64,000 nucleotides of DNA from a virus: IMG/VR virus record IMGVR_UViG_3300005529_000006, positions 1-64,000 of that record. One strand, 5' to 3'. The translations under genes were made by a program, and so were the position numbers. The number at the start of each line of letters is the position of its first letter. The stretch's first letter is position 1. The notes under the pieces are model-generated. The model was not told the origin of the DNA and made no database searches. It saw only the letters and a program-made list of their open reading frames with translations. This document shows, in pieces, positions 3,470 to 61,733 of the stretch.

Positions 3470-3488
3470 GAACCCCTTTTTAGGTAGG
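3470..3488 (+). repeat. 19-bp motif copy A (GAACCCCTTTTTAGGTAGG)
   Basis: Exact copy. On the minus strand it reads CCTACC-TAA-AAAGGGGTTC, with the TAA being the stop of 3480..3785; 13 nt upstream of the 3457 start. Confidence 0.8.
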
Positions 3489-3785
3489 ACACAGGCTTCG
3501 TCTTTGCTGCCACAAAGCGGCAGCAGAATAGAAGTGATAATCCTGCAATAAGGGGCCTATTCGCTTTCTCGGTTTTGAGCGACATCTACCTCTCTGATAC
3601 TCCCGTTTCATGTGACATGAGCGACAGACTGGCTCAACATCCAAGGGGTAGTCGTAACCAAGGTAGTGGTCGTAATCTCGCGCTCGACCGCCGCAGTCGG
3701 TGCAAGATAGCGATTTAGCTGGAGGGATCTTCCCTCGCTTTACGTAGTTCTTAATGCGCTCTCGCGCACGTAATTCCTTGGTCAT
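3480..3785 (-). CDS. zinc-finger protein (CTDCGG...CRSCH)
   Basis: ORF with Cys4 motif; ends ...CPT* inside the 19-bp motif. Confidence 0.45.
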   Translation of the reverse strand: MTKELRARERIKNYVKRGKIPPAKSLSCTDCGGRARDYDHYLGYDYPLDVEPVCRSCHMKREYQRGRCRSKPRKRIGPLLQDYHFYSAAALWQQRRSLCPT

Positions 3786-3947: not shown

Positions 3948-4106
3948 TCACTTCTGTAACTCCCGAACGTTCTCACAGTATCCTTCATACATCAGGATGC
4001 TTTCTTCCTCTGCGAGCCGTCCGACATGAATCCCCCCACAATTTTCACATTCATACATTGTGAAGGGAGCTTTACTTAGTTTGTTGAGCTTATTCGCCAG
4101 GTTCAT
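3948..4106 (-). CDS. small zinc-ribbon protein (start taken at internal Met)
   Basis: C-terminal YECENCGGIHVGRLAEEESILMYEGYCEN; trimmed to avoid the overlap with 4130..4456. Confidence 0.3.
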   Translation of the reverse strand: MNLANKLNKLSKAPFTMYECENCGGIHVGRLAEEESILMYEGYCENVRELQK

Positions 4107-4129
4107 AGCGAACCACCAATCAGGAAGGT

Positions 4130-4456
4130 CTAACTTCTTCCTGCACTGGTTTCGCCTGAAGTCGTACTCTCTTTGCCTGAGGAGTTTGCTTCTCTGTCCC
4201 ATTGCTTTCCGATTTCTTGAATCTCTGCAATCGCGCCCCAAGGGATGGTAATGTCATCAATGGACGCACGGGAGTGCCCAATGGAAGTGGTGAGCACAAT
4301 GCCTTCTTTATTGGTCTGCACCACGTAACCGATGGACTGGATTTTCGCACAACCCCTCTGGAGCGTATCGTCGTATGTCCATCCAAACATGCTCTTGGAG
4401 TCATACCACCTGACTTGTACTGCCTTCCCAAAGGGATACTTTCTTGCCTTCGTCAT
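4130..4456 (-). CDS. hypothetical protein (108 aa)
   Basis: ORF preceded by AAGGAG-like RBS, a hairpin and a motif copy. Confidence 0.45.
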   Translation of the reverse strand: MTKARKYPFGKAVQVRWYDSKSMFGWTYDDTLQRGCAKIQSIGYVVQTNKEGIVLTTSIGHSRASIDDITIPWGAIAEIQEIGKQWDREANSSGKESTTSGETSAGRS

Positions 4457-4479: not shown

Positions 4480-4503
4480 GGGGGAGGTTTTATTTCCTCC
4501 CCC
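4480..4503 (-). terminator. GC-rich hairpin (GGGGGAGG-N8-CCTCCCCC) between two minus-strand genes
   Basis: Perfect 8-bp stem read directly; a weak U-tract follows on the minus strand. Possible attenuator or terminator. Confidence 0.35.
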
Positions 4504-4521: not shown

Positions 4522-4540
4522 CCTACCTAAAAAGGGGTTC
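4522..4540 (-). repeat. 19-bp motif copy B (reads CCTACCTAAAAAGGGGTTC on plus)
   Basis: Exact copy; overlaps the TGA stop of 4539..4862. Confidence 0.8.
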
Positions 4541-4862
4541 AGAAGCTATATTGTTCTTCGTACTTCACCTTGAACATGAACTCGAAAGGTTTAACGGGTT
4601 GTTTTTCGTCAAACTTGACGATGAAGTCATCTGCCTTCTTCGGGGCGGAGAGAAAATATGTAACTCCGTCTAAAGTAATGGAGTAGTACCCGCCTCCAGA
4701 TATGTCCACGTTTATTTGTTCGGACGGCTTCAAATTGAGGATTCGTCCACACGCCCGAGCAATAGGACAATAAGAGCCATTGCCAACTTTTCCCTTGTCA
4801 ATATCCTCTTGCGTCACAACCACCTTGAACTTCTTTGGTACCGTTCGTTTGATTTTTGCCAT
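4539..4862 (-). CDS. hypothetical protein (107 aa)
   Basis: ORF; first gene after the 450-bp non-coding gap. Confidence 0.5.
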   Translation of the reverse strand: MAKIKRTVPKKFKVVVTQEDIDKGKVGNGSYCPIARACGRILNLKPSEQINVDISGGGYYSITLDGVTYFLSAPKKADDFIVKFDEKQPVKPFEFMFKVKYEEQYSF

Positions 4863-4976
4863 ATTTTCATCCTTTCACCAGTTCTACTGCCTTTTTGTGT
4901 CCCTCTTCCGCTTCTGTTTCTGGCGGCATCCAAGATGTAATTCATGTTGCGTTTCCCTTTATTCAAAAATTGGTGG

Positions 4977-5082
4977 GGCAGGAGTGGCTCACTCGCAGAC
5001 TGAGTACAACTAGAGTATCCGGGCTTATGGCCATGCCGGACTCGCCCTCATTCGTCCCTATGAGCTAAACCCCACTCCTGCA
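4977..5082. other. non-coding element closed by a 10-bp inverted repeat (GCAGGAGTGG ... CCACTCCTGC); contains the palindrome ATGGCCAT
   Basis: Read directly from the sequence; lies in the 4863-5318 gap with no ORF. Possible structured RNA or ori element. Confidence 0.35.
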
Positions 5083-5094
5083 CCGGGAGCGACC

Positions 5095-5350
5095 CGGCGA
5101 CCCATGTGTGGGCACAACATCACCCAAGTGGTCGATTCTGTCTCTCTCACTACCCCCCTGAACACCTAATTCCAACTTCGAGTGGGCACATCTTTACCCA
5201 GGTGGTAGAATCTGTCACTCTCTCTTTCCCCCTTAACCCCTTTAGAATCCTATAAATAAATAAACACCCAAAAAGAGAGAGACATATCTAACCACTTGGG
5301 CGTAGTTGTGCCTAAATTTCAGGACTTACCACTTGGGCAACTTGTGCCCG
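5095..5350. repeat. repeat cluster: two ~60-bp direct repeats starting GTGGGCACA(A), then two inverted partial copies (ACCACTTGGGC..TTGTGCC)
   Basis: Repeats at about 5108-5165, 5182-5240, 5291-5312 and 5328-5350. The same GGGCACAA core recurs at 56759-56950. Confidence 0.6.
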
Positions 5351-5561
5351 AATCTTGGTAATACTGACAATGATTGTTCCCTTCCGCGTCCAGTCCACCT
5401 CTTTCATTGAACCCGAAGTGTTCACATTCCTCCGGGATGAACTGTTCTCCAGTAGCTTGCAACCACACTTCGTTCATGACCACACCTAGGTGATGCTCCG
5501 TCCAAGAGTGGCCGCAAACACATATGCCCGAACATTCCGGCCCACTGTATCTAGGATTCAC
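5319..5561 (-). CDS. Cys/His-rich small protein, candidate anti-sigma or zinc-binding partner of the sigma factor
   Basis: Its start overlaps the sigma gene end by 11 nt; motif CSGICVCGHSWTEHH. Confidence 0.45.
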   Translation of the reverse strand: MNPRYSGPECSGICVCGHSWTEHHLGVVMNEVWLQATGEQFIPEECEHFGFNERGGLDAEGNNHCQYYQDSGTSCPSGKS

Positions 5562-6078
5562 GTCCCCTCCTCATCTTTTCCGCAATATCAAACCACTTCT
5601 TACACGCCCCACCCACAGTGATCCCCAACCTCTCTCCGATCTCCTCATGCGTGAGCCCTTCCAATCTCATCCTCACCACCAACTTCTCCTCATCATCCAA
5701 GACCTCCATTGCCTGCTCCAACTCCGCCTTTGCAAGCATGGCTCGGCCTTGTCTTTCCTCATCTCCTAATGTCTCCTCCAACGTGTCCACGGATATCTCA
5801 GGGTGCGTGATCTTCTCCCTCAAAGAGAGATTGCACATTTGCGTCACAATCGCCTGGAACCACGTACTAAACAGGCTCTCTCCCCTGAACGTATGGGCCT
5901 TATCAATTGCCTTCCACACGGCATCGGCCACAATATCCGGCCTATACTCCCCCAACTTCAACCAACAAACCGCGAACGCATGTCTGCGGAGGAGAGGAAT
6001 CAGCAAGTCCAACGCCGCTCGTTTCTCCTCCTCAGTCTGCGCACTCTGCCATAACGCGAACGCCTCATTCTCCTTCAT
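5551..6078 (-). CDS. ECF-type sigma-70 family RNA polymerase sigma factor
   Basis: Region 2 (DAVWKAIDKAHTFRGESLFSTWFQAIVTQMCNLSLRE) and region 4 HTH (LEGLTHEEIGERLGITVGGACKKWFDIAEKMR); 175 aa. Confidence 0.75.
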   Translation of the reverse strand: MKENEAFALWQSAQTEEEKRAALDLLIPLLRRHAFAVCWLKLGEYRPDIVADAVWKAIDKAHTFRGESLFSTWFQAIVTQMCNLSLREKITHPEISVDTLEETLGDEERQGRAMLAKAELEQAMEVLDDEEKLVVRMRLEGLTHEEIGERLGITVGGACKKWFDIAEKMRRGRES

Positions 6079-6415
6079 CTAACGGACTGTTCCTGTCCTC
6101 TTTCGGCTCCGTAATCACGATCTCCGTCTGTTTGACTTCGACCTCTGGAGCGAATCCAGCAGGTTTCCCCACCTTCTTTGTACGGATGATCCAAGCAATA
6201 TCCTCCATTTCATATAGACCCGGAGTCCGTTTGTCATCGTAGCTAGTACACTGACTCACCGGCCATTCAACGAAGTAAGGTTGCCACTCAGAGAGCTGAC
6301 CACACCTCACCAACTCTTGACTTGGAGTGACCCCCTTAACAATCGTCGCTTTCCTGCAAGTCCGGCACAGGCTTTCTCCGTCTGGTGCCGTCCCTCCAAC
6401 TACTTTTATGCGCAA
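6065..6415 (-). CDS. hypothetical protein (116 aa)
   Basis: ORF overlapping the sigma gene start by 14 nt. Confidence 0.45.
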   Translation of the reverse strand: MRIKVVGGTAPDGESLCRTCRKATIVKGVTPSQELVRCGQLSEWQPYFVEWPVSQCTSYDDKRTPGLYEMEDIAWIIRTKKVGKPAGFAPEVEVKQTEIVITEPKEDRNSPLDEGE

Positions 6416-6424
6416 AGTTCCCTC

Positions 6425-6658
6425 CTATGCGACTCCTACCCCTTGATAGGCCATGCTCCCCACTGCCACCTGTACCACCTCCTGCCCACAAGTCATACAC
6501 CTGACTGTAAGCACTCCAGTAGAGCTATACGCGACATCCAGCCCCGTACCGGGATGACACTTACTCGTAAGCAGCATCTCTTCATGCTTTCCACCACAGT
6601 GCGTACAGCCTTTGTCCAGCGACCCGTCCAAATCTTCACGAAACTTTATTTTTGCCAT
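6425..6658 (-). CDS. zinc-ribbon protein (CTHCGG...CMTCGQ)
   Basis: ORF with two CxxC pairs. Confidence 0.45.
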   Translation of the reverse strand: MAKIKFREDLDGSLDKGCTHCGGKHEEMLLTSKCHPGTGLDVAYSSTGVLTVRCMTCGQEVVQVAVGSMAYQGVGVA

Positions 6659-6721: not shown

Positions 6722-8149
6722 TCAAAGCACTCCTATGCCAAGCTTGGCGCACAACATATCAAGATCATGGCAATGTATGAACTGCTTGTTCTTCAGTGCT
6801 CCCTTGAAGAGTTCATCCGTCGCCTTCCGGAAAGAGTCATCTCCTGTCCATCCAGTATCCGTTACAAAGTACCTGGGGGCAGGCTGTTTCAATAACCACT
6901 GAAGCGCAGGGAAATCAATATAGTTCTCCCCATACCTGAAGGGTAGTTTTCCTCCGCCTTGATGCTTATAACGTCTGCCTTTCTCGGAGTAGATAGCCAA
7001 GGTGCCGTTGTACTGGATACAAGGGTCCCCCTTGCTATCCTTAACAGCCTTCCCATTCTGCCCCGAGTAATACGCCACCGTACCCAAGGGGATCTTCTCC
7101 GCCACAGCCTGGAGCTGTCCATCAGGAATACTCATACTCCCCGACGCATCAATCAAAACCGTCCCGCCATTCAGATGTTTCGCTCTTCGCAAAAACATCC
7201 TTGGCGGAGCAGGACTAATCGCAAGCGCCAACTTCTTCGCCCGAATCTTCATGCCTGCCATGACCAGCTTCTCGCTTGGCCCCTTGAAGGTGGCTTCACT
7301 GGTGGCCTTCTGCGCCATGTGCTCGATCTTCATGCGCGGGTAACCATCGGGCTTGGACATGATGTCTTTAATCGAACCGCCCGACAGATAGTCCGTGGCG
7401 TCCCCCAGAGAAAGGAAGTTGCTTTTCTCCTCTTCCCTTTTCTTGCCCCCTCCACGTCCCCATCCCCGCGTGGTCATCTTCATCAGCTCTCTGGGGCTTT
7501 GCATCTTGGCCCCAGTGAAGAACTTCTCGATGATTCTCCGAGCCGCCGCCTTGTTGTCTTTCTTCAGGTAGTCCAAAGCAGAATCAATTGCATCCCGCGC
7601 CAATTGCCCGTTCCCAAATAGCGGCATATCTGGGTCATAGAAGTGCCCTAAATCTGTACACTTCTGAAACAACTTATCCGCCAATTCTGGATGAGGAACA
7701 TCCCCTCCCTGCATCATGGCCCTGGCTCTCAAGGCCACAAGAAATGCAGCATCCTTCATGCCCAAAGGCATATACCTGATCGACCGCAAATCCAAGTAAG
7801 CCATGGTCAGCTCGTCCCGCCTGACCGAGCCCCTGGTCTGTGCGCACTTCACATGCAAATACGCATCTTCCACAGCCTGACTCAGGAAACTCTGATCGAC
7901 AGAAGCCTCCCCTGAATAAAGCGCATGAAGAGATTCATGAAGTCGAATTGTTCTGCCCACTGCATCTTCAAAGGTGGGGAGGATGGCCTCTTTCTTTTCC
8001 GGACTATATCCCCCCATAACATTGTTCAGCGGGTCGGCCTGTTTGACCTTGACCTTCGCCCCATCCTCCTTAAGCCTGTCCTTGAAGAGTTCCAACACCT
8101 CATCGACGTTGGACTTCAGGTACTCCGCACCGAAAACCTCTTCACTCAT
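6722..8149 (-). CDS. VWA-domain protein (CobT-like partner of the MoxR ATPase)
   Basis: MIDAS motif VLIDASGSMS in the C-terminal half; 475 aa; coupled by an ATGA overlap to the upstream Cys-rich ORF. Confidence 0.65.
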   Translation of the reverse strand: MSEEVFGAEYLKSNVDEVLELFKDRLKEDGAKVKVKQADPLNNVMGGYSPEKKEAILPTFEDAVGRTIRLHESLHALYSGEASVDQSFLSQAVEDAYLHVKCAQTRGSVRRDELTMAYLDLRSIRYMPLGMKDAAFLVALRARAMMQGGDVPHPELADKLFQKCTDLGHFYDPDMPLFGNGQLARDAIDSALDYLKKDNKAAARRIIEKFFTGAKMQSPRELMKMTTRGWGRGGGKKREEEKSNFLSLGDATDYLSGGSIKDIMSKPDGYPRMKIEHMAQKATSEATFKGPSEKLVMAGMKIRAKKLALAISPAPPRMFLRRAKHLNGGTVLIDASGSMSIPDGQLQAVAEKIPLGTVAYYSGQNGKAVKDSKGDPCIQYNGTLAIYSEKGRRYKHQGGGKLPFRYGENYIDFPALQWLLKQPAPRYFVTDTGWTGDDSFRKATDELFKGALKNKQFIHCHDLDMLCAKLGIGVL

Positions 8150-8727
8150 GACTTCCTCCGTTTGCAGTTGCCATCTTCGTCGAAATGATCTGTTAGATCG
8201 GCGTTAAGCCACCGGTCGCCTTTGCGCCAAAAGGCTCCGGAGCAGTAGCCGCAGTTAGTAGGCCAATAGCCCTTCTTCACCAGCGCCCCCGCAGGAATAT
8301 AACAATCGGGTTCGCCTTCGCTTGGTGCCCAATTATGGTGTTCCCCCCAAGACTTCCCGCAGTTCGCACAAGGCTCCTTCGAGTTCCTGTCATCAAACGT
8401 TGCCCCACAGACCATACATCCCATCCCATCACATACACATGGTTTGTAAATGACTATGGGCTCGAAAGAACAGCCGACCCCTCCTTTTGTTGTATGCCTA
8501 CCTGCATGTTTCCCACACTTCTTACAACGCGCACTGTATGGATAACCGTAGCTGCCAACAGTGAGAGGATCGCCGGAGGGATACTCTTTCCTGTATCCCT
8601 CCGTATCCAGCACAACCACTTCCCCCTCACTTGTTGTCCAGGTCTCAGCTACGTCCCCTAAAAACCGGGGTGAGTCAAATACCCCTTGCCTCCAGGACAC
8701 TTCATGGCCTCTGAACTCCCCGCCCAA
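8146..8727 (-). CDS. Cys-rich protein with repeated CxxCG..W.EHH zinc-binding units
   Basis: CKKCGKHAGRH, CANCGKSWGEHHNW, CGYCSGAFWRKG; sits between the AAA and VWA genes. Confidence 0.45.
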   Translation of the reverse strand: MGGEFRGHEVSWRQGVFDSPRFLGDVAETWTTSEGEVVVLDTEGYRKEYPSGDPLTVGSYGYPYSARCKKCGKHAGRHTTKGGVGCSFEPIVIYKPCVCDGMGCMVCGATFDDRNSKEPCANCGKSWGEHHNWAPSEGEPDCYIPAGALVKKGYWPTNCGYCSGAFWRKGDRWLNADLTDHFDEDGNCKRRKS

Positions 8728-9707
8728 CTATGGTCGTTGGCAGTGAGGCCACAGTTTCTACATTTCACACTTGAGTAATCATTGGGCAGATACCCTTGCT
8801 TCGAGCCCCCATCCTTTCCATGTGGCCCATTCCTATGCGGACAAGTCTGCCCAGGGCCAAACTCCGGATGAGCAAGGTGCGCTCCCTGTTGTTCCCCACA
8901 GTAATAACAGGGGCTGCTCGTATCAGGAATCTTTCCCTTATATCTCGCAGCCGTGGTCAGTACCGACAGAATCTCTTTCCCCGTCGTTCCAAACACACTC
9001 TCCGCGATCTGTGTCTCGCACAGAATCTCCGCCTGCTTGATCTTGGCGAAAGCCCGCATCCGGCGCAGCGTGGGTTTAGTAGAAAACTGCCACGGAGCAG
9101 GAGCCACGTTCTTGAAATGGTTCTTAACCGCCGCAGCTTGCGCCTCATCCAACCCGGTCAGCGCATCGGGATGAGGGTCTTTGGCAATCAAAACCGCCTC
9201 AAACCGATCAATGATGGCTTCCGGCAGACTGGCCAAGTTCGCATTAGTAGTGGCAATCACCACATACCCCTGCTTCGCCTTGACCATCTCTCCGGTGGGG
9301 AGCATAATCTGCGGAGCGTCATCCAGGAACGCATACATCAAAGACGCGATCTCACTTGGATGGTGGTCGATCTCGTCAATGAGCAGAGCCTTCCCTTCCC
9401 GGAGGGCTCTCGTTCCTGGGCCATCAACCCAAACGGTTTCCCCTTCCCGGAGCTGATACATCCCCACAATGTCCTCCACTCCCGTGCCTTCCGTCATGGT
9501 CAGACGGTAATCACTGCGAGTGACCTCTACTGCGGTGCGGCTTTTGCCCGTTCCCGGAGGGCCACAAAGCAAAATCCGGTTGCTCCCGCTATCCACCAGT
9601 GCGGGAAGGGCCTGGTACCATGCCACACTACGTGCAAACTTCGTCGCTTCGCTCATCTTCAGTAGCTCCTTCGATCTCTTCTTTTTCGTTCTCAATGACG
9701 TAGCCAT
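8658..9707 (-). CDS. MoxR/CobS-like AAA+ ATPase (AAA_5) with a Cys/His-rich C-terminal tail
   Basis: Walker A LLCGPPGTGKSRTA, Walker B LLIDEIDH, sensor ATTN, IDRF; C-terminal CYYCGEQQGAHLAH...CRNCGLTANDHSW. Confidence 0.7.
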   Translation of the reverse strand: MATSLRTKKKRSKELLKMSEATKFARSVAWYQALPALVDSGSNRILLCGPPGTGKSRTAVEVTRSDYRLTMTEGTGVEDIVGMYQLREGETVWVDGPGTRALREGKALLIDEIDHHPSEIASLMYAFLDDAPQIMLPTGEMVKAKQGYVVIATTNANLASLPEAIIDRFEAVLIAKDPHPDALTGLDEAQAAAVKNHFKNVAPAPWQFSTKPTLRRMRAFAKIKQAEILCETQIAESVFGTTGKEILSVLTTAARYKGKIPDTSSPCYYCGEQQGAHLAHPEFGPGQTCPHRNGPHGKDGGSKQGYLPNDYSSVKCRNCGLTANDHSWAGSSEAMKCPGGKGYLTHPGF

Positions 9708-9767
9708 GTTGCTCCTGATGTTTCTTACTCAGCCGCCTGAACACTTCCAGCATGTCTGCTGACTGCA

Positions 9768-10052
9768 TCAGTTGGCCTTTTCCTTGCGGAACTTCTCGTC
9801 CAGCTCCTTGAACTTAGCCGGATCACCTATGTAGCTCTGATCGACTTGTTGTAGAGTCTGTTTGGATTCCCCTGCAAAATGGGTTTCCTGACAAACCCCT
9901 CCAACCTCTTTTGTCCATTCCCGGAGGGTGTGTTCCAGTCTCTCGACCAGATTTTTCGCTATTCCTTTGGGAATCTGTGCTCCAGTCACGCTAACCGAAA
10001 AGGTGTCCGGCCCATCTGGTTCCCACCCCACTGCCAATACACTCCTGCGCAT
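9768..10052 (-). CDS. hypothetical protein (94 aa)
   Basis: ORF. Confidence 0.4.
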   Translation of the reverse strand: MRRSVLAVGWEPDGPDTFSVSVTGAQIPKGIAKNLVERLEHTLREWTKEVGGVCQETHFAGESKQTLQQVDQSYIGDPAKFKELDEKFRKEKAN

Positions 10053-10373: not shown

Positions 10374-10404
10374 GCTTCCTTCGTTTACTTCTACCCAATA
10401 AAAA

Positions 10405-10436
10405 AGCCCACCCTTTCGGGTGGGCCTTGTCTGCCT
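10405..10436 (-). terminator. rho-independent terminator (minus orientation)
   Basis: Stem GCCCACCC/GGGTGGGC with loop, followed by UUUUUUAUU on the minus-strand transcript; about 38 nt after the SPFH gene stop. Confidence 0.55.
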
Positions 10437-10473
10437 GTATTTGAGCGAAACCGGAGAGCTTCGGGACTCCCCT

Positions 10474-13850: not shown

Positions 13851-13902
13851 AAGCCCCCGAAGGGGGCTTTTGCAAGAGCACTTACTCAGGCCAGAGCGTG
13901 CT

Positions 13903-18515: not shown

Positions 18516-18561
18516 TCGATGCCCACTCAGTAGGCATCCAGCGAAGAAGCCCCATAAGGGG

Positions 18562-19476: not shown

Positions 19477-19495
19477 GAACCCCTTTTTGGGTAGG
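19477..19495 (+). repeat. 19-bp motif copy C (GAACCCCTTTTTgGGTAGG, 1 mismatch)
   Basis: In the control region, followed by AGGTATG. Confidence 0.65.
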
Positions 19496-19836: not shown

Positions 19837-19855
19837 CCTACCTAAAAAGGGGTTT
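19837..19855 (-). repeat. 19-bp motif copy D (CCTACCTAAAAAGGGGTTt, near-exact)
   Basis: About 72 nt upstream of the first rightward gene. Confidence 0.65.
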
Positions 19856-29378: not shown

Positions 29379-29572
29379 TGGCCGGTAGAATCTCCATCTC
29401 CTCCCCTGACGGGAAGGACTTCTTCAACGTCCTCACCGTCCAAGGCGTTGTCTTGTTAGTGTGGAACGACGCCCTCTTCTACATGTCCATGGAAGAAGCA
29501 GGCAGACTCCTCAATATGCTTTCCCAGGCAGTAACAGGAGCAGCCCCCCAAATAACTATCCCCCCTACCTAA
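29378..29572 (+). CDS. hypothetical protein (65 aa; trimmed from ORF 29243..29572)
   Basis: TAATG junction; the N-terminal part of the longer ORF looks like out-of-frame Arg/Pro-rich translation. Confidence 0.3.
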   Translation: MAGRISISSPDGKDFFNVLTVQGVVLLVWNDALFYMSMEEAGRLLNMLSQAVTGAAPQITIPPT

Positions 29573-29582
29573 AAAGGGGTTC
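29564..29582 (-). repeat. 19-bp motif copy E (CCTACC-TAA-AAAGGGGTTC, followed directly by ATG)
   Basis: Exact; the TAA is the stop of 29378..29572; ATG of a 38-aa ORF at 29583. Confidence 0.8.
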
Positions 29583-42062: not shown

Positions 42063-43259
42063 ATGCCTGTAATTCAAGGAAACAGCAGTCCTCTCTATAC
42101 CACGTCCACGACTGTTCAGAACATTCTGGACGCGGTGTCGCAAGACATTCGTTCGCAGTTGTCCTCGCAGGTTAATACCGGTGGGCAGCCGATTCTGCTT
42201 GACTATCTGAATCGTACCCAACTGGAGATGCTGCGGGCGAGCAGGTGGCAGTTCTTGCTCTCTGCTCCACAACGTTTCATTACACAATTGGGAGTAACCG
42301 ATTATTGGCTTGGTACTCCTGGGCAAGCTCCCCCTGGAGCCTATGACACTCTCCTTAACCTGGCGGATCTTCGTACCATAAAGCCCGGAACGGTTTACGA
42401 CCGAACGAACAATGTGCCTCTGGGCCGAGTCGATGAGGCTCCCCTAGTAGCAAAGCTGGAGTATCCCGATGCCAGCTTTCGGATGTTCCGCCCTTCCGAT
42501 TGGCGACAGAGCCCTACAAGTCCACAGGTCCTGAACATCTACCCGGCCCCGGATAACCAGGCAATCTATAAGCCCCAACCCATGCCTGCAATCTGTGGAA
42601 CCATGGCAGGAGGCGCACTAGGCTCCAGGATCTACTACGTCACTCTGACCTACGTGGACTCGTTAAACAACGAATCTAGCTCTCCACAAGTGAGCAAGAT
42701 CTTTGTCCCTGCGGGCAGCGTATTGGTGGTCAATCCTCCAAATCCCCCGATTATTCAGGGCACCACTGGAATCCGCTACGACCGTTACAACGTGTACGTA
42801 AGCACCAACAACACTCAGTTCCAGCAGCACAAGCAGAACAACTCTCCGATCTCATACCTCCAGGCGTGGGTTGAACCCACCAGTGGTATCACCACGAACG
42901 GAGCACTGGTTCCTTCGACCAACAATGTCGAGCCCATTGACGGGTACATCATCGAGTTTCGCTACTTCAAGCAACGCGTTCAACTCAACAGTAATACTGA
43001 TCCCTCTACCGTCATCCAGATTCCGGATGACTACAAAGATGTGGTGGTATCTGGAGTCAACGCCAGGGCCTATCAGTACCTTCGTCAAGGACAAGAAGCC
43101 ATGCGCGAGTTCCAACTTTTTCGAGATGGCCTAACCCAAATGGTCCGAGACATGAACCTGCACCCGCGTGGACAGGAATACCTTAAGCCCGACGGGTCCT
43201 CGATTGGTGGCACTCTCCCCGCAGTCGAAACTATCGACCTCTCTGTACTGAGTAACTAA
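42063..43259 (+). CDS. putative tail/adaptor protein (398 aa)
   Basis: ORF in the tail block. Confidence 0.5.
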   Translation: MPVIQGNSSPLYTTSTTVQNILDAVSQDIRSQLSSQVNTGGQPILLDYLNRTQLEMLRASRWQFLLSAPQRFITQLGVTDYWLGTPGQAPPGAYDTLLNLADLRTIKPGTVYDRTNNVPLGRVDEAPLVAKLEYPDASFRMFRPSDWRQSPTSPQVLNIYPAPDNQAIYKPQPMPAICGTMAGGALGSRIYYVTLTYVDSLNNESSSPQVSKIFVPAGSVLVVNPPNPPIIQGTTGIRYDRYNVYVSTNNTQFQQHKQNNSPISYLQAWVEPTSGITTNGALVPSTNNVEPIDGYIIEFRYFKQRVQLNSNTDPSTVIQIPDDYKDVVVSGVNARAYQYLRQGQEAMREFQLFRDGLTQMVRDMNLHPRGQEYLKPDGSSIGGTLPAVETIDLSVLSN

Positions 43260-43277
43260 ACCCCTTTTTAGGTAGGA
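43259..43277 (+). repeat. 19-bp motif copy F (aAACCCCTTTTTAGGTAGG; ATG 1 nt after)
   Basis: Fills the whole intergenic spacer between 43259 and 43278. Confidence 0.75.
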
Positions 43278-50292: not shown

Positions 50293-53200
50293 TGCCACAG
50301 AATCCTGACATCAGATCGGTCCTCGATCCTCTTCAGGTGGATAAGAGTCTCAAGAAAACCGCTTGGGACTCCTACTACGGAGCGAACAGCCCCGATGAAT
50401 TCCGCCAGAAGTTCGACTCCCTCGCTATCCCAAAGGAAGCTAAAAAGCAACTTTGGGATATGAAGTTTGGAGGGAAACCGAAAGTAAACTTCCCGATCCC
50501 ACAGCCCTTTGAAACTGGGCCACAGCTTCCGGAGAAACCGGAGCAGCCTGGAATTGTCTCCCAGGTCCTAAGTGCGGCCTCGAATATCCCCTTGCTGTCT
50601 GACTTGGGGATACCTTCGAGTCGTGGACCGATGCCTGTCAAGGGTGCAGGTGTAGCCGATGTGACTGGAGCCCGAGGTTATCCCGAGATGTATCAGGGAG
50701 CCAAGGAGTTCTATAACGCGGACCAATACGCAGATAAACGTCGCGCACAATACCAGGGAGCAGCTCGTACCATTGGTGGCGCGATGGAAGCGGCCAAGCC
50801 ACTGATGTATCTCTCCGCAGCGGAAGCCCCCATCGACTTCGCCGCAGGTCTTGCATTGAGTCAAGCAGGAAGTTATGGGGCAGAACATATCTCCCGAAAC
50901 TACTTCAAGGCTTCCCCTGAAGCGCAGCAGCTCTGGGGACAGCTAGGCGGATTCCTGCCCATGGCAGGAGGCATGGCACGGGGATCTATCCGTGGCTACA
51001 AAGAGCTTCGTTCCAATTTGGTTTCGAAACTAGCCGATGACATGTTGAAGCAAGGAGCTACGCCAGAGATGGCACAGCAAGCTGCTGAACATGCGGTGCA
51101 GATGTATGAAGCCACCGGGGACGCGCAACGCATTGGGGCGGAGAACGCTGAACCTCCGAGTGCTACAAAGGTTGCCAAGATCCAAGGAAGGAAGATCGCA
51201 GGTGGAGTGGTTGGAGCCGCACAGCACGCAGCTCCCCTGCCTGAAGAACAAAAGGCAACTCCTATTCCGGAGTTCCAGCAAGCCCCGGTCCCGACGGACA
51301 AGATCGCAACTCCCACGGAGACGTTCGCCCAACCGGAGACACCTAAGACAACTCCCGCCCGTGAGATACTGTCGAGTAGTCCATCTTCTGAGTCTGCCTT
51401 TATGGAGCCTCCGAAAGTGGAGGCTGCTCAGCCGACCGACGTGCGATCTGAGACTCGCCATAACATAACTACCGACGCTGTAACTGGAGAGCAGAAGGTT
51501 GCCCGCAAGGAACTTCCTCCTGCCCAGGAGCGGGCGCAGCAGTACGTCAACGACTATCAGAACTTCGACAAGGAGCAGCAACAGTTAGAGCGCTCCCTCA
51601 AGAACGGCAGACTAAAGAATGCCGACGCCACGCGCCAGCGAGTCGAACTCCTCAAGCAACTCAAGGACAAAGCCTGGAGGAACTATGTCCAGTACGCAGA
51701 CAGGGGAGATGTAGTAGATACCCTGAAGGGCCTGGCCCCTCAGCTCAAGTCTCTTGCCGATCAAAGCTCTCTCCTCCAGAGCATCGGCAAGCATCTCGCC
51801 GACGGCAGCTACACCCTCTACAAAGCAACTGCGGACAAGTCCAACAAGACTTATGTTCCGGATGACCTGATTCAGTCTGCCCTGGGCACAGGCCGCACGA
51901 ACGTAGTGCCTCCCGTCCCTAAGGACTTCGTTGACTCCTTACCCGAAGGCTCCTACAAAGAACAGCTCAAAGCTCTCAATCCTCGCAGCCAGGAAATCCG
52001 TCAAGCCTGGGTATCGAAGTATCTTCTCCAGACCTCCGGAGAAGTCCGCAACCAATACGAGGCGCTTAATGACCGCTTCAACGTCGCACTCAAAGTAAAA
52101 GGCGTGCGACCGGAGGAGTGGCTGCCCCTCACTGCCGAGAGCAAACCCGAACCCAAAGGCCTCCCCGCTTATCGCCCGGAGACTCCTGCCCCCGCTGTCA
52201 ACAAGCCTTCTGCCTCGGCTACCGAGCGCAACTCGATCATCGAGTACTACCAGAAGCAACTGGCTGCCGCTAAGACCGACAAGGATCGGCAGATGTGGCA
52301 GAAGTCAATCGAGAAAGAGCAGAAGAAACTCGGGAAAGTCCCTCCCACAGAGGTCCCCAAGACCGAACCTCCCCTACCTAAAAAGGGGTTCAGCGAACAG
52401 GAGTTGCCTGATGAGATGCGCTCCTTCCTCTCTGCCAATGCCACCATGGGCATGAGAGCGGACGGAGACATAGGCGCACTCCGTCAACTTGCACAGTTCG
52501 GCGACCCCAAAGTTTCTAAACGCGCCCGCCTCTATCTCAAGGCCCTAGGTCATGAAGTCCCCAAAGTTTCCAAAGCCAGCAAAGTGGAAAGTGCCCCATC
52601 AACCTCCGAGGGCACCCCTGCTGAAAAGTCTCTCGAAGCCGCCCAGAGCGCCCAGGCCGCAGGAAAACCCCTTTCGCCTCTCTCGCGGAAAGAAGTTCTA
52701 GATGTAGTTGACAAAGAAATAGCTAAAGCAGGTTTCGACAAAGCCATCGTCAAAGACATTCGCAAGCTGGTGCTCGACACCTACGCCCGTGAAGTGGCGG
52801 CAGGTAACGAGAACGCCCTTGAAGATGTCAAGGGGGTGATCCAATCTTTTGCGAACCAGAAGGGGGTATTCTCCTTCCGTCGCATACCGGGTACGCCGCA
52901 AGGCCCGTCCGTTTTCAGCAGACTCGCTGACACTCTAGACCGAACTCTCAACAAATCTGAACAACGCCAGCTCGCAGAGAACGTTCTCCGTGAAGGCACA
53001 GGCTCGCTCGCCAGGGACAGAGAAAAGGTTTTCCATCGCCTGGAGGATCACCTTGACCGCCACGACGGGGACAATGTAATGGAGTTCCGCGAGTTCATGG
53101 ACGCCGGTGAAGGCAAGCCAGGGGCACGCTTCCTCAATCCCCAAGACCAAGCCATCGCCAACGACCTGCACCAGATGTTCCAAGAACGTTGGGCAAAGCT

Positions 53201-55358: not shown

Positions 55359-55381
55359 GGGGTTCTCCGGAACCCCTTTTT
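55359..55381 (+). terminator. rho-independent terminator (GGGGTTC-tccg-GAACCCC + TTTTT)
   Basis: Its downstream arm and T-tract are the first 12 nt of motif copy H. Confidence 0.65.
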
Positions 55382-55388
55382 AGGTAGG
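55370..55388 (+). repeat. 19-bp motif copy H (GAACCCCTTTTTAGGTAGG; ATG of integrase 1 nt after)
   Basis: Exact copy. Confidence 0.8.
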
Positions 55389-56755: not shown

Positions 56756-56758
56756 TTT

Positions 56759-56798
56759 GGGCACAACTGGGCACAAAACCTGGACTATTTTGTGCCCT
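56759..56798. promoter_or_regulatory. operator-like site: GGGCACAA direct pair, then a 10-10-10 palindrome GGGCACAAAA-N10-TTTTGTGCCC
   Basis: Read directly; same core as the 5095-5350 cluster. Confidence 0.55.
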
Positions 56799-56889
56799 TT
56801 TTCTTTGTGGCAGAACGCTAACCCACATGGAATCAACAGGGCTTATGTTATATATTTGGGTACCGCGCCCTGCCACAGGGACATTCAAA

Positions 56890-58086
56890 CTATACACCTG
56901 CAACAACTTCTGCCTCAACCGTGGGCACAAGTGGGCACAAAATCGTGCCCATCTGATCCGCTACTTCCCGGTCTTTCTCCCGAATAGCGTGCGCATAAAC
57001 CCGAAGCGTGAGGCTTGGATCGGCGTGGCCGAGCCTGGTTGCCGCCGTTCGGATATCGACTCCTCGGGAAACAAGGAGAGTTGCGTTGGCGTGCCGGAAG
57101 GCATGAAGGCCCCCTGGCTCAATCCCGAGTCGTTCGAGGAGGGGTTGGAGCTTTTGGAATACGATGTCATGGCCATCAAGAGGGGTGCCGTTGCGGGTGC
57201 TAAACACGAATCGCAAAGGGTCTCCCCCTCCAGCACAATGACGTTCAAGGGCATCAGCCAGAGCTTTGGATACCGCGAGCGTTCGTAGTGCGCTCGTCGA
57301 TTTCGGGGTCTGTACTCGACCCTTCCATACACTCTGCCGCACTTGCACTGTATGGTGTCGGGTGTCAACATCACACACCCTGAGTCCAGTGATTTCACCT
57401 GCACGTAGTCCTGTTTCAGCAGCCAGCCAATAGATAGTCCTATATGGTTCTTCGGCTGCGGCGATTATTCTTTGGATCTCCTCCAGGGAGAAGCACCGTC
57501 TCTTGGGTGGCTTCTTCCTTGGGAGCACAATGCCATCACAGGCGTTGTGAGTTACAGTTCCCCAAGATTTGGCGGTCTTCCATATGAGTCTGAAGGTGCC
57601 GATGATATTCCTGACGGTCTTGGGATTTAAGGTGAGGCCCGCGATGAATCTTTGAAGATGCACGGGTGCAATATCCCCCATGTCCATCTCCCCAAAATAC
57701 GGAATAAGATACCTGTTTATGTGGTTCTTCTCCATGCTCTGAGTGGACAACTTGTGGGAGGGCATCACGGTGTCTCGCCAGTTGGTGGCAAATTCCCCAA
57801 AAGACACCTTGACCCTCGGACGATAATCCAGGGCATTTACTTCACCCAGGAGTCGGTCGAGGGCCCGTTGAGCTAAACGTTTAGTAGGGAGTTCCTGTAG
57901 AGTCCCCAATACCTTCGACTTGTGAACTCTCACAATCGCAGAAGTTGAGGCGCTTGCCACAGCTCCAGCAGAAGTCGTAGGTTCCCCATACGAAGGCTTG
58001 ACATCCTCCCTCCACCTGGCGACCCACACCTTCTTCTTGTTTCCCCTGAGAAACAACCTTCCTTTCTGATACCTTCTCCGAGCCAT
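56890..58086 (-). CDS. int: tyrosine integrase (phage type, about 398 aa from the MARRRYQKG start)
   Basis: N-terminal arm/SAM-like region, catalytic C-terminus ...LHAFRHANATLL...GHADPSLTLRVYAH. ORF as listed begins at 58143. Confidence 0.75.
   Translation of the reverse strand: MARRRYQKGRLFLRGNKKKVWVARWREDVKPSYGEPTTSAGAVASASTSAIVRVHKSKVLGTLQELPTKRLAQRALDRLLGEVNALDYRPRVKVSFGEFATNWRDTVMPSHKLSTQSMEKNHINRYLIPYFGEMDMGDIAPVHLQRFIAGLTLNPKTVRNIIGTFRLIWKTAKSWGTVTHNACDGIVLPRKKPPKRRCFSLEEIQRIIAAAEEPYRTIYWLAAETGLRAGEITGLRVCDVDTRHHTVQVRQSVWKGRVQTPKSTSALRTLAVSKALADALERHCAGGGDPLRFVFSTRNGTPLDGHDIVFQKLQPLLERLGIEPGGLHAFRHANATLLVSRGVDIRTAATRLGHADPSLTLRVYAHAIREKDREVADQMGTILCPLVPTVEAEVVAGV
56921..56950. repeat. 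GTGGGCACAA x2 plus an inverted GTGCCC half-site, overlapping the last codons of the integrase
   Basis: Read directly; candidate arm-type/attP-associated sites. Confidence 0.5.
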
Positions 58087-61714: not shown

Positions 61715-61733
61715 GAACCCCTTTTTAGGTAGG
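61715..61733 (+). repeat. 19-bp motif copy I (GAACCCCTTTTTAGGTAGG; on the gene strand CCTACCTAAAAAGGGGTTC-ATG)
   Basis: Exact copy; sits 2 nt after the stop of 61736..62137. Confidence 0.8.

Follow-up and report, generated by a model that had tools for sequence, protein, structure and literature searches.

A phage sigma factor gene that overlaps the gene for a small cysteine- and histidine-rich protein raises the question of whether the second protein is a dedicated regulator of the first. Such a pair is located in the window analysed here, a stretch of 64,000 nucleotides (nt) that comprises positions 1 to 64,000 of the IMG/VR virus record IMGVR_UViG_3300005529_000006. The first gene (5551..6078, minus strand, ATG start), recognized as an open reading frame (ORF) with profile matches, encodes a protein of 175 amino acids (aa) of the sigma-70 family, namely of the extracytoplasmic function (ECF) type, group 4. 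The second gene (5319..5561, minus strand, GTG start), recognized as an ORF with homologs, encodes an acidic Cys/His-rich protein of 80 aa from an unannotated phage family, called the zinc protein in the following. A sequence-only reading of the window, in which the strand of the two ORFs was absent, had proposed the zinc protein as a candidate anti-sigma factor or zinc-sensing partner. The comparison with related loci does not support this proposal: the two genes adjoin each other in only one of 26 distinct loci, the closest relatives of the sigma factor occur without the zinc gene, and the protein shows neither the motif nor the predicted fold of the zinc-binding anti-sigma (ZAS) factors. 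We consider it fairly probable that an ordinary phage ECF-type sigma factor and an independent zinc-protein gene came to lie beside each other incidentally.

The sigma factor and the gene overlap

Several profile matches assign the 175-aa protein to the ECF-type sigma factors. The NCBIfam model TIGR02937 (sigma70-ECF) covers residues 32-169 with 61 bits (cut-off 42.9), and the PHROG family phrog_1740, annotated as RNA polymerase sigma factor, is matched with E = 1.1e-12. With phmmer, residues 39-164 align with sigma-E of E. coli (PDB 1or7), and this alignment takes in both the FRG(D/E)S.F.TW motif of region 2.3 and the helix-turn-helix of region 4.2. Since the TIGR02937 cut-off is passed and the window is the genome of a temperate phage, the sequence-only reading was right to speak of a phage-encoded ECF-type sigma factor. 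Its statement that regions 2 and 4 are both clear has to be qualified. Region 4 is clear, as Pfam Sigma70_r4 (32.1 bits, cut-off 24.1) and Sigma70_r4_2 (31.9 bits, cut-off 25.7) both exceed their cut-offs. Region 2 is not recognized by the Pfam domain model alone, since Sigma70_r2 reaches just 16.9 bits over residues 27-85 and thus stays under the cut-off of 24, but it is backed by the whole-protein models, namely the span of TIGR02937 and the alignment with sigma-E over regions 2.2-2.4.

On the basis of these matches, the sigma-2 domain can be placed approximately at residues ~20-90 (5809..6021, minus strand; TIGR02937 and sigma-E alignment), including the stretches DIVADAVWKA and FRGESLFSTWFQAIV, and the sigma-4 domain with its helix-turn-helix approximately at residues ~107-171 (5566..5760, minus strand; Pfam r4 at 123-156, Sigma70_ECF at 107-171). 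Among seven phage homologs, D48, F64 and W73 are invariant in sigma-2, and G141, E146, I147 and G152 in sigma-4. The layout is the short one with two domains: only ~20 of the 175 residues separate the matched sigma-2 and sigma-4 stretches, and no Pfam match to Sigma70_r3 or r1 was found in the ORF.

Like the group 4 ECF sigma factors, with E. coli sigma-E (1or7) as an example, the protein therefore consists of sigma-2 plus sigma-4 within 175 aa and has kept the motifs of regions 2.2-2.4 (DIV..A, F.GES.FSTW) and the helix-turn-helix of region 4.2. It differs from them in being encoded by a phage, in having no recognisable cognate anti-sigma factor next to it and in matching no subgroup. Indeed, no NCBIfam equivalog or subfamily model came near its cut-off, the best one being SigM with 42 bits against 190. 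Relatives are rare: a collection of 5.8 billion sequences contained only five homologs at E <= 1e-3, the closest with 44% identity, and among 50,697 deposited phage records nothing came closer than unannotated faecal contigs with 28-29% identity. Judged from its sequence, the 175-aa protein is a phage-borne group 4 sigma factor that has diverged but keeps an ordinary structure.

Phage-encoded ECF-like sigma factors are already known for reprogramming the host RNA polymerase. The comparison with the phage sigma factors phiEco32 gp36, SPO1 gp28 and gp33/34 and T4 gp55 is instructive, as the window sigma factor likewise belongs to the early or middle genes of a phage without an RNA polymerase of its own, and it matches the PHROG sigma families phrog_1740, phrog_351 and phrog_1190. 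It differs from them in that the sequence similarity is only distant and that the window phage is temperate and carries an integrase. The gp36 protein of phiEco32 transcribes middle and late genes with the host core enzyme, and gp79, a small phage co-factor of gp36, stabilises this sigma factor on the RNA polymerase (PMC12276001). By analogy, the window sigma factor would be made from the long leftward early/middle operon, would most likely bind the host core RNA polymerase via its sigma-2 and sigma-4 domains, and would redirect the enzyme to a set of phage promoters, as gp36 and the sigma factors of SPO1 and T4 do. It is thus expected to switch the host RNA polymerase to later phage promoters.

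The overlap of the two genes is easily read from the minus strand, where the junction is ...GAA AAG ATG AGG AGG GGA CGT GAA TCC TAG. The GTG start codon of the zinc gene (5559-5561) lies inside the sigma frame, so that the sigma stop and the zinc-gene start overlap by 11 nt (5551..5561, minus strand), exactly as the sequence-only reading had stated. A perfect Shine-Dalgarno sequence AGGAGG (5566..5571, minus strand) is situated within the last sigma codons, 4 nt before the GTG. Overlaps of this kind are common in the phage. At the other end of the sigma gene, the stop of an ORF for a Cys-containing protein of 116 aa (6065..6415, minus strand) overlaps the sigma start by 14 nt; this ORF has no tblastn match in sigma-bearing loci and is thus not conserved beside the sigma homologs. 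Short overlaps make up approximately one quarter of all gene junctions in the window, according to a crude longest-ORF gene call that overestimates overlaps. Overlapping is thus what one expects here, and it does not mark sigma factor and zinc protein as a dedicated pair.

Occurrence of the two genes in related loci

The strongest argument comes from the comparison of the 26 distinct zinc-gene loci, which were taken from ENA, Logan and JGI assemblies, IMG/VR and GTDB genomes, with the related contigs covered to ±10 kb or less around the locus. Only in the window does a sigma gene adjoin the zinc gene. Clear sigma homologs are present in four other loci, at distances of 0.3-5 kb and in varying order: 5 kb upstream of the zinc gene in L001, 0.3 kb downstream with two small genes in between in L004/L005, 1.4 kb downstream in L006 and 1.1 kb downstream in L033. 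L028 contains a weak sigma match (E = 6.6e-5) on the opposite strand, ~3.4 kb upstream of the zinc gene, and no sigma gene was found within the sequence covered in L002, L003, L032 and L034. None of the 19 zinc-gene loci from IMG/VR has a sigma homolog within ±10 kb, as judged by a search with a hidden Markov model (HMM) that still detects the distant sigma factors of L006 and L033.

The comparison can also be made from the side of the sigma factor. In L007 and L008, whose sigma factors are its closest homologs (44% identity), the ±8 kb around the sigma gene contain no zinc gene. L035, of the relatives found the nearest one with synteny, possesses a sigma factor with 37% identity and shares PolA (69%), Sak4 (55%), the exonuclease (49%) and p108 (55%) with the window, and the zinc gene is absent there as well. 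The gene located 3' of the sigma gene differs from locus to locus, and it usually overlaps the sigma gene, too. In the position of the zinc gene of the window, there is an unrelated 366-aa protein in L035 (14-nt overlap), a COOH-NH2 ligase in L001 (17-nt overlap), a 67-aa protein in L007, and a secreted HExxH protein in both L004 (9096-9530, 144 aa, 11-nt overlap) and L008 (8552-9034, 160 aa, 4-nt overlap). Since its pairing with a sigma factor is not conserved, the zinc protein is most probably not a cognate sigma regulator.

Two observations on the surroundings of the sigma homologs may be added. The sigma-overlapping proteins of L004 and L008 combine an N-terminal signal or lipoprotein-like peptide with an HExxH metalloprotease-like motif, and this gene recurs beside the sigma gene although the two sigma factors are only distantly related; it may be a sigma-linked gene. 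In L035, two overlapping ORFs of the LuxR/GerE helix-turn-helix type (9261-9880) are found directly upstream of the sigma gene, both with weak matches to the sigma-4 part of the sigma HMM.

The zinc protein also has to be compared with known anti-sigma factors. It resembles the ZAS factors RsrA, ChrR and RslA in being small and Cys/His-rich and in being encoded directly 3' of an ECF-type sigma factor with which it is co-translated. However, it contains no HxxxCxxC motif (a regular-expression search was empty) and has no match to Pfam zf-HC2, and its eight conserved ligands are not the ZAS set. Its predicted fold consists mostly of strand and loop with one short helix, whereas ZAS factors have a four-helix anti-sigma domain, and its pairing with a sigma factor is not conserved. 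In all features tested, which are motif, fold and conserved pairing, the 80-aa protein fails as a ZAS or class I anti-sigma factor. It has no transmembrane segment either (maximum Kyte-Doolittle mean over 19 residues 0.57), so that the sequence-only reading was correct on the lack of both membrane segment and HxxxCxxC.

It is nevertheless worth considering that the zinc protein is a dedicated sigma regulator just in this clade, either as a soluble, non-canonical anti-sigma factor that responds to a redox or zinc signal, or as a co-activator of the gp79 type. Co-transcription, the 11-nt overlap and the strong Shine-Dalgarno sequence would have the two proteins made together, and five of approximately ten distinct loci of the closest clade have an ECF-like sigma gene at most 5 kb from the zinc gene. 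The protein is small, acidic and predicted to bind metal, like several anti-sigma factors, and a phage sigma factor with a small phage partner has a precedent (PMC12276001). Against this stand the single case of adjacency among the 26 loci with varying order and distance elsewhere, the 19 of 19 IMG/VR loci in which no sigma homolog lies within 10 kb, the three closest sigma homologs, including that of the syntenic L035, which lack the zinc gene, and the missing ZAS motif, zf-HC2 match and helical anti-sigma domain. Moreover, neither by sequence nor by fold is there a match in the PDB, which is presumed to include AsiA, the anti-sigma domain (ASD) proteins and probably gp79, a presence that was not checked; the same limit applies to the solved phage proteins of the gp79 type that bind sigma factors or RNA polymerase, among which the 80-aa protein found no relative. 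Taken together, we regard a dedicated sigma regulator as very unlikely.

Properties and possible roles of the zinc protein

The 80-aa protein belongs to a well-defined family. It has 33 homologs at E <= 1e-13 with 52-74% identity over the full length and invariant Cys/His columns, a conservation that marks the ORF as a genuine gene. A filter-free profile search extended the family to 174 clusters at 50% identity, nearly all of them stand-alone proteins of 50-150 aa. In an alignment of 90 sequences, C14, C16, H23, C46 and C65 are invariant, and G17, H18, H24, G50, N52, E53, G56 and H64 are conserved in at least 90%, which gives the consensus CxCGHxxxxHH...C...HC. H18 is swapped for Cys in seven of the 90 sequences, the pattern expected of a metal ligand. 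The window protein possesses all of the family columns (C14, C16, H18, H23, H24, C46, H64, C65, G50, N52, E53 and G56). The peptide CSGICVCGHSWTEHH represents its residues 10-24, and the codons of the knuckle C14-x-C16-G-H18-x4-H23-H24, as defined by the family alignments, are found at 5490..5522 (minus strand). Because there are eight conserved Cys/His ligands, we propose two metal sites, and the protein probably holds two zinc ions.

No known family could be assigned to the protein, as searches against Pfam (E <= 0.1), PHROG and NCBIfam models gave no match. The AlphaFold2 (AF2) model has a pLDDT of 94.6 and consists mostly of strand and loop, with two short strands and one helix of seven residues. 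A sequence-profile search of the PDB yielded two insignificant matches only, and a PDB fold search with the model found nothing. According to the model, the protein probably adopts a compact fold without a detected relative among the solved structures. The family is acidic, with a median pI of 5.3 and a median net charge of -6. Since it is acidic and has no DNA-binding signature, the protein more likely works by protein-protein contacts. This also separates it from the late-gene activators Ogr of P2 and Delta of P4, with which it shares the predicted zinc binding, the size of ~70-80 aa and the occurrence in a temperate phage. Ogr-type proteins are basic DNA-binding C4 proteins, whereas the zinc family is acidic and arranges its ligands as CxC-x-H-x4-HH ... 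C ... HC.

The same knuckle (CxCGxSWxEHH) as in the 80-aa protein is carried by CANCGKSWGEHH in a Cys-rich ORF of 193 aa at 8146-8727 (minus strand). We rejected this ORF as a paralog of the 80-aa protein, since the alignment extends over just 9-17 columns and hhalign gives a probability of 12.6%. It is flanked by a gene for an AAA_5 (MoxR/CobS-like) ATPase (8658-9707, minus strand) and one for a 475-aa protein (6722-8149, minus strand) with a DASGS MIDAS-like motif, and it is possible that the three genes form an ATPase/VWA module.

As to the distribution of the family, tblastn of the zinc protein and blastn of the region against the 50,697 deposited phage genomes gave no match. In GTDB, matches were obtained in metagenome-assembled genomes (MAGs) of Ca. 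Acidoferrum (59% identity; L028, a contig of 144 kb), Solibacteraceae (L030), Nanopelagicales (L029) and Dormibacteria (L031); no other gene of the window matched these contigs. The copies on contigs from Acidobacteriota, Actinomycetota and Dormibacteria probably sit in prophages. To judge by these MAG occurrences, the hosts of the family may live in soil, peat or freshwater, and the host of the window phage is possibly a member of the Acidobacteriota.

No neighbour family of the zinc gene is conserved across the loci. Among 110 neighbouring ORFs, counted by Pfam family within ±2.6 kb of the zinc gene in 17 loci, DNA replication, recombination and repair families predominate, with PDDEXK_1 (4), PolA, Metallophos, ResIII and SMC_N (2 each) and single cases of UvrD, DnaB, SNF2, EndoVII and RNA ligase. 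The zinc gene overlaps a Metallophos gene by 4 nt in L006 and a DnaB helicase gene by 14 nt in L034, and it lies just upstream of PolA in L001. Fusions are found with a Metallophos phosphoesterase and with DUF433, each in one of the 174 clusters; the remaining long members have no Pfam domain, and the cluster names give no functional hint. Our best guess, proposed because of the gene neighbourhood only, is that the 80-aa protein is a zinc-stabilised protein-binding module that serves replication or recombination or that counters a host nuclease or defence system. Most likely, it would target parts of the phage module for DNA replication, recombination or nuclease functions, or the corresponding host proteins.

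Another possibility is that the zinc protein is an anti-defence protein, which might for instance block a host nuclease or a different defence effector as an inhibitor or by mimicry. Small size, acidity and patchiness are typical of phage nuclease inhibitors and counter-defence genes such as lambda Gam, T7 gp5.9 and Ocr. All three apply to the zinc protein, which is absent from the syntenic L035 and whose gene adjoins recombination nucleases in several loci, and a role of this kind would explain the patchy distribution reminiscent of accessory genes. However, no known family or structure was matched in Pfam, PHROG and PDB, the PADLOC and anti-defence libraries being uninformative or not searched, and the strict conservation of eight metal ligands plus acidic residues would suit an enzyme cofactor or adaptor equally well. 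We therefore judge this explanation to be unlikely.

It has also to be asked whether the zinc protein serves in host takeover by binding the RNA polymerase or the primary sigma factor of the host and shutting down host transcription, alongside the phage sigma factor where there is one and together with other strategies in phages without it. A small acidic protein from an early/middle operon with no DNA-binding signature would be a suitable candidate, the presence of the family in many phages whether or not they encode a sigma factor fits a universal host target, and in the window phage it is co-expressed with a replacement sigma factor. Yet the PDB, which is presumed to contain AsiA, Gp2, P7, gp39, gp76 and gp79, offers no likeness in sequence or fold, and the neighbours of the zinc gene belong mostly to DNA replication and recombination and not to transcription. 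Host takeover consequently appears quite unlikely.

Our preferred explanation thus remains that of an ordinary sigma factor with an unrelated neighbour. The gene for the 80-aa protein would be an independent one. Its product, small and acidic, would probably hold two zinc ions through about eight Cys/His ligands, and the family would be scattered over the early replication/recombination modules of numerous uncultured phages, which probably stem from soil, peat or freshwater. The sigma adjacency would be peculiar to the window phage, the overlap would reflect the tight packing of the operon, and the protein is most probably not a cognate anti-sigma factor.

Several points weigh against this explanation. 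In the clade closest to the window, with zinc proteins that are 58-74% identical, an ECF-like sigma gene lies within 5 kb in about half of the loci, so a looser functional link between sigma factor and zinc protein may exist within this clade. Sigma genes that are located beyond ±10 kb, or that are too divergent for the HMM, escape detection. Neighbourhood is a weak guide to the function of small phage genes, and the fusions are single cases. Zinc binding, ligand assignment and fold of the 80-aa protein are predictions, and sigma activity and regulon of the 175-aa protein are taken from analogy with other phages.

Setting in the phage genome and significance

The window represents the genome of a temperate tailed phage, in which genes for terminase, portal, integrase and a family A DNA polymerase were found; the contig from which it derives measures 67,277 bp. 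Its rightward structural arm extends from ~19.9 to 56.3 kb and contains the terminase, portal and tail genes. The leftward arm with the early, replication and recombination genes runs from ~19.6 kb down to position 1 and from 64 kb to ~56.3 kb. Apart from the sigma and zinc genes, it includes genes for a Sak4-like annealase, an exonuclease/EndoVII fusion, the AAA_5 ATPase, the family A DNA polymerase and the integrase. Terminators consisting of a hairpin plus T-tract (10385-10440, 13860-13895, 18525-18550 and 4480-4503, all minus strand; such as GGCCCACCCGAAAGGGTGGGCTTTTTT and AAGCCCCCTTCGGGGGCTTTTG) delimit several transcription units within the leftward arm, and the sigma/zinc pair belongs to the unit bounded by those at ~10.4 kb and ~4.5 kb.

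The leftward operon contains several further small ORFs for Cys-rich or CxxC proteins, all on the minus strand and most of them without family assignment: 3480-3785 (101 aa), 3948-4241 (97 aa), 4539-4862 (107 aa), 6065-6415 (116 aa, the ORF upstream of the sigma gene) and 6425-6658 (77 aa). Because there are several such proteins, a zinc-binding neighbour of any gene in this operon is unsurprising. In the window as a whole, no tRNA genes were found, and a search of Rfam gave no match. The GC skew is negative (C > G on the plus strand) over nearly the whole window in both transcription arms, so that the strand composition is independent of the direction of transcription.

Two kinds of repeated DNA elements deserve mention with regard to the sigma factor. 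The first is a motif of 18/19 bp, CCTACCTAAAAAGGGGTT(C), which occurs nine times in the window against 0.04 copies expected (3471-3488 (-), 4522-4539 (+), 19478-19495 (-), 19837-19854 (+), 29564-29581 (+), 43259-43276 (-), 52373-52390 (+), 55371-55388 (-) and 61716-61733 (-)) and has no copy in any of the 35 related loci. All copies but one are situated in short spacers between genes, and both orientations with respect to transcription are represented. In two cases an ATG start codon follows directly (43278 and 55390), and a terminator-like hairpin at 55359-55381 (GGGGTTC-TCCG-GAACCCC-TTTTT) has the motif as its 3' half. The copy at 19837 is found at approximately the -35 position of a -10-like box, TGTATAAAAT, before the rightward operon. 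We rejected the motif as a simple sigma-dependent promoter on account of both orientations, the copies before start codons and the half in the terminator hairpin. The occurrence in both orientations also agrees with the earlier view that it does not look like an ECF promoter.

The second element is 22 bp long and is confined to 5111-5349 within the window. Directly downstream of the zinc gene there is a non-coding gap of 456 nt (4863..5318) with these repeats and an AT-rich core, ATAAATAAATAAA. The element, GGCACAA(C/G)-N3-4-CCCA(A/G)GTGGT, is present in four copies, two per strand, which face the core (5111-5132 and 5185-5206 on the plus strand, 5291-5312 and about 5328-5349 on the minus strand). 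A -10-like T(A/C)GA(A/T)T and TGTC(T/A)CTCTC come after every copy, and one copy was scored as TGGGCA-17-TAGAAT plus an extended -10; it is on the plus strand, which is antisense to the sigma/zinc operon. The repeats were not found in any related locus. They look like candidate operators, face-to-face regulated promoters or origin iterons. Near the integrase gene, there are tandem TGGGCACA boxes (56758-56803 and 56922-56967) that include the inverted repeat GGGCACAAAA...TTTTGTGCCC. Since these boxes and the repeats at 5111-5349 share a GGGCACA core, a common DNA-binding regulator is suggested. Neither the 19-bp motif nor the repeats nor a scan of the window with consensus sigma-70 promoters and terminators, which stayed at chance level, yielded a promoter motif that could be tied to the phage sigma factor.

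With respect to novelty, the sigma factor is a divergent example from an uncultured temperate phage and adds no new principle. A far-reaching idea would be that the two-zinc CxCGH..HH/ECE/HC protein is the first member of a new class of phage proteins that modulate transcription by acting on sigma factors or RNA polymerase. In the window phage, such a modulator would be linked to the ECF-type sigma factor that the phage itself encodes, as a soluble, metal- or redox-responsive anti-sigma factor or co-factor, and would act on the host sigma factor or RNA polymerase in phages without a sigma factor of their own. We hold this to be very improbable.

The lesson of the locus is a negative one: in tightly packed phage operons, adjacency to a sigma gene and overlap with it are insufficient to call a protein an anti-sigma factor. 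As a by-product, the analysis brought up a fairly large family of small acidic proteins that has no annotation, comprises 174 clusters at 50% identity and probably binds two zinc ions. Given the confident predicted fold and no solved relative detected, this family makes a sensible subject for structural and functional studies of early phage proteins.

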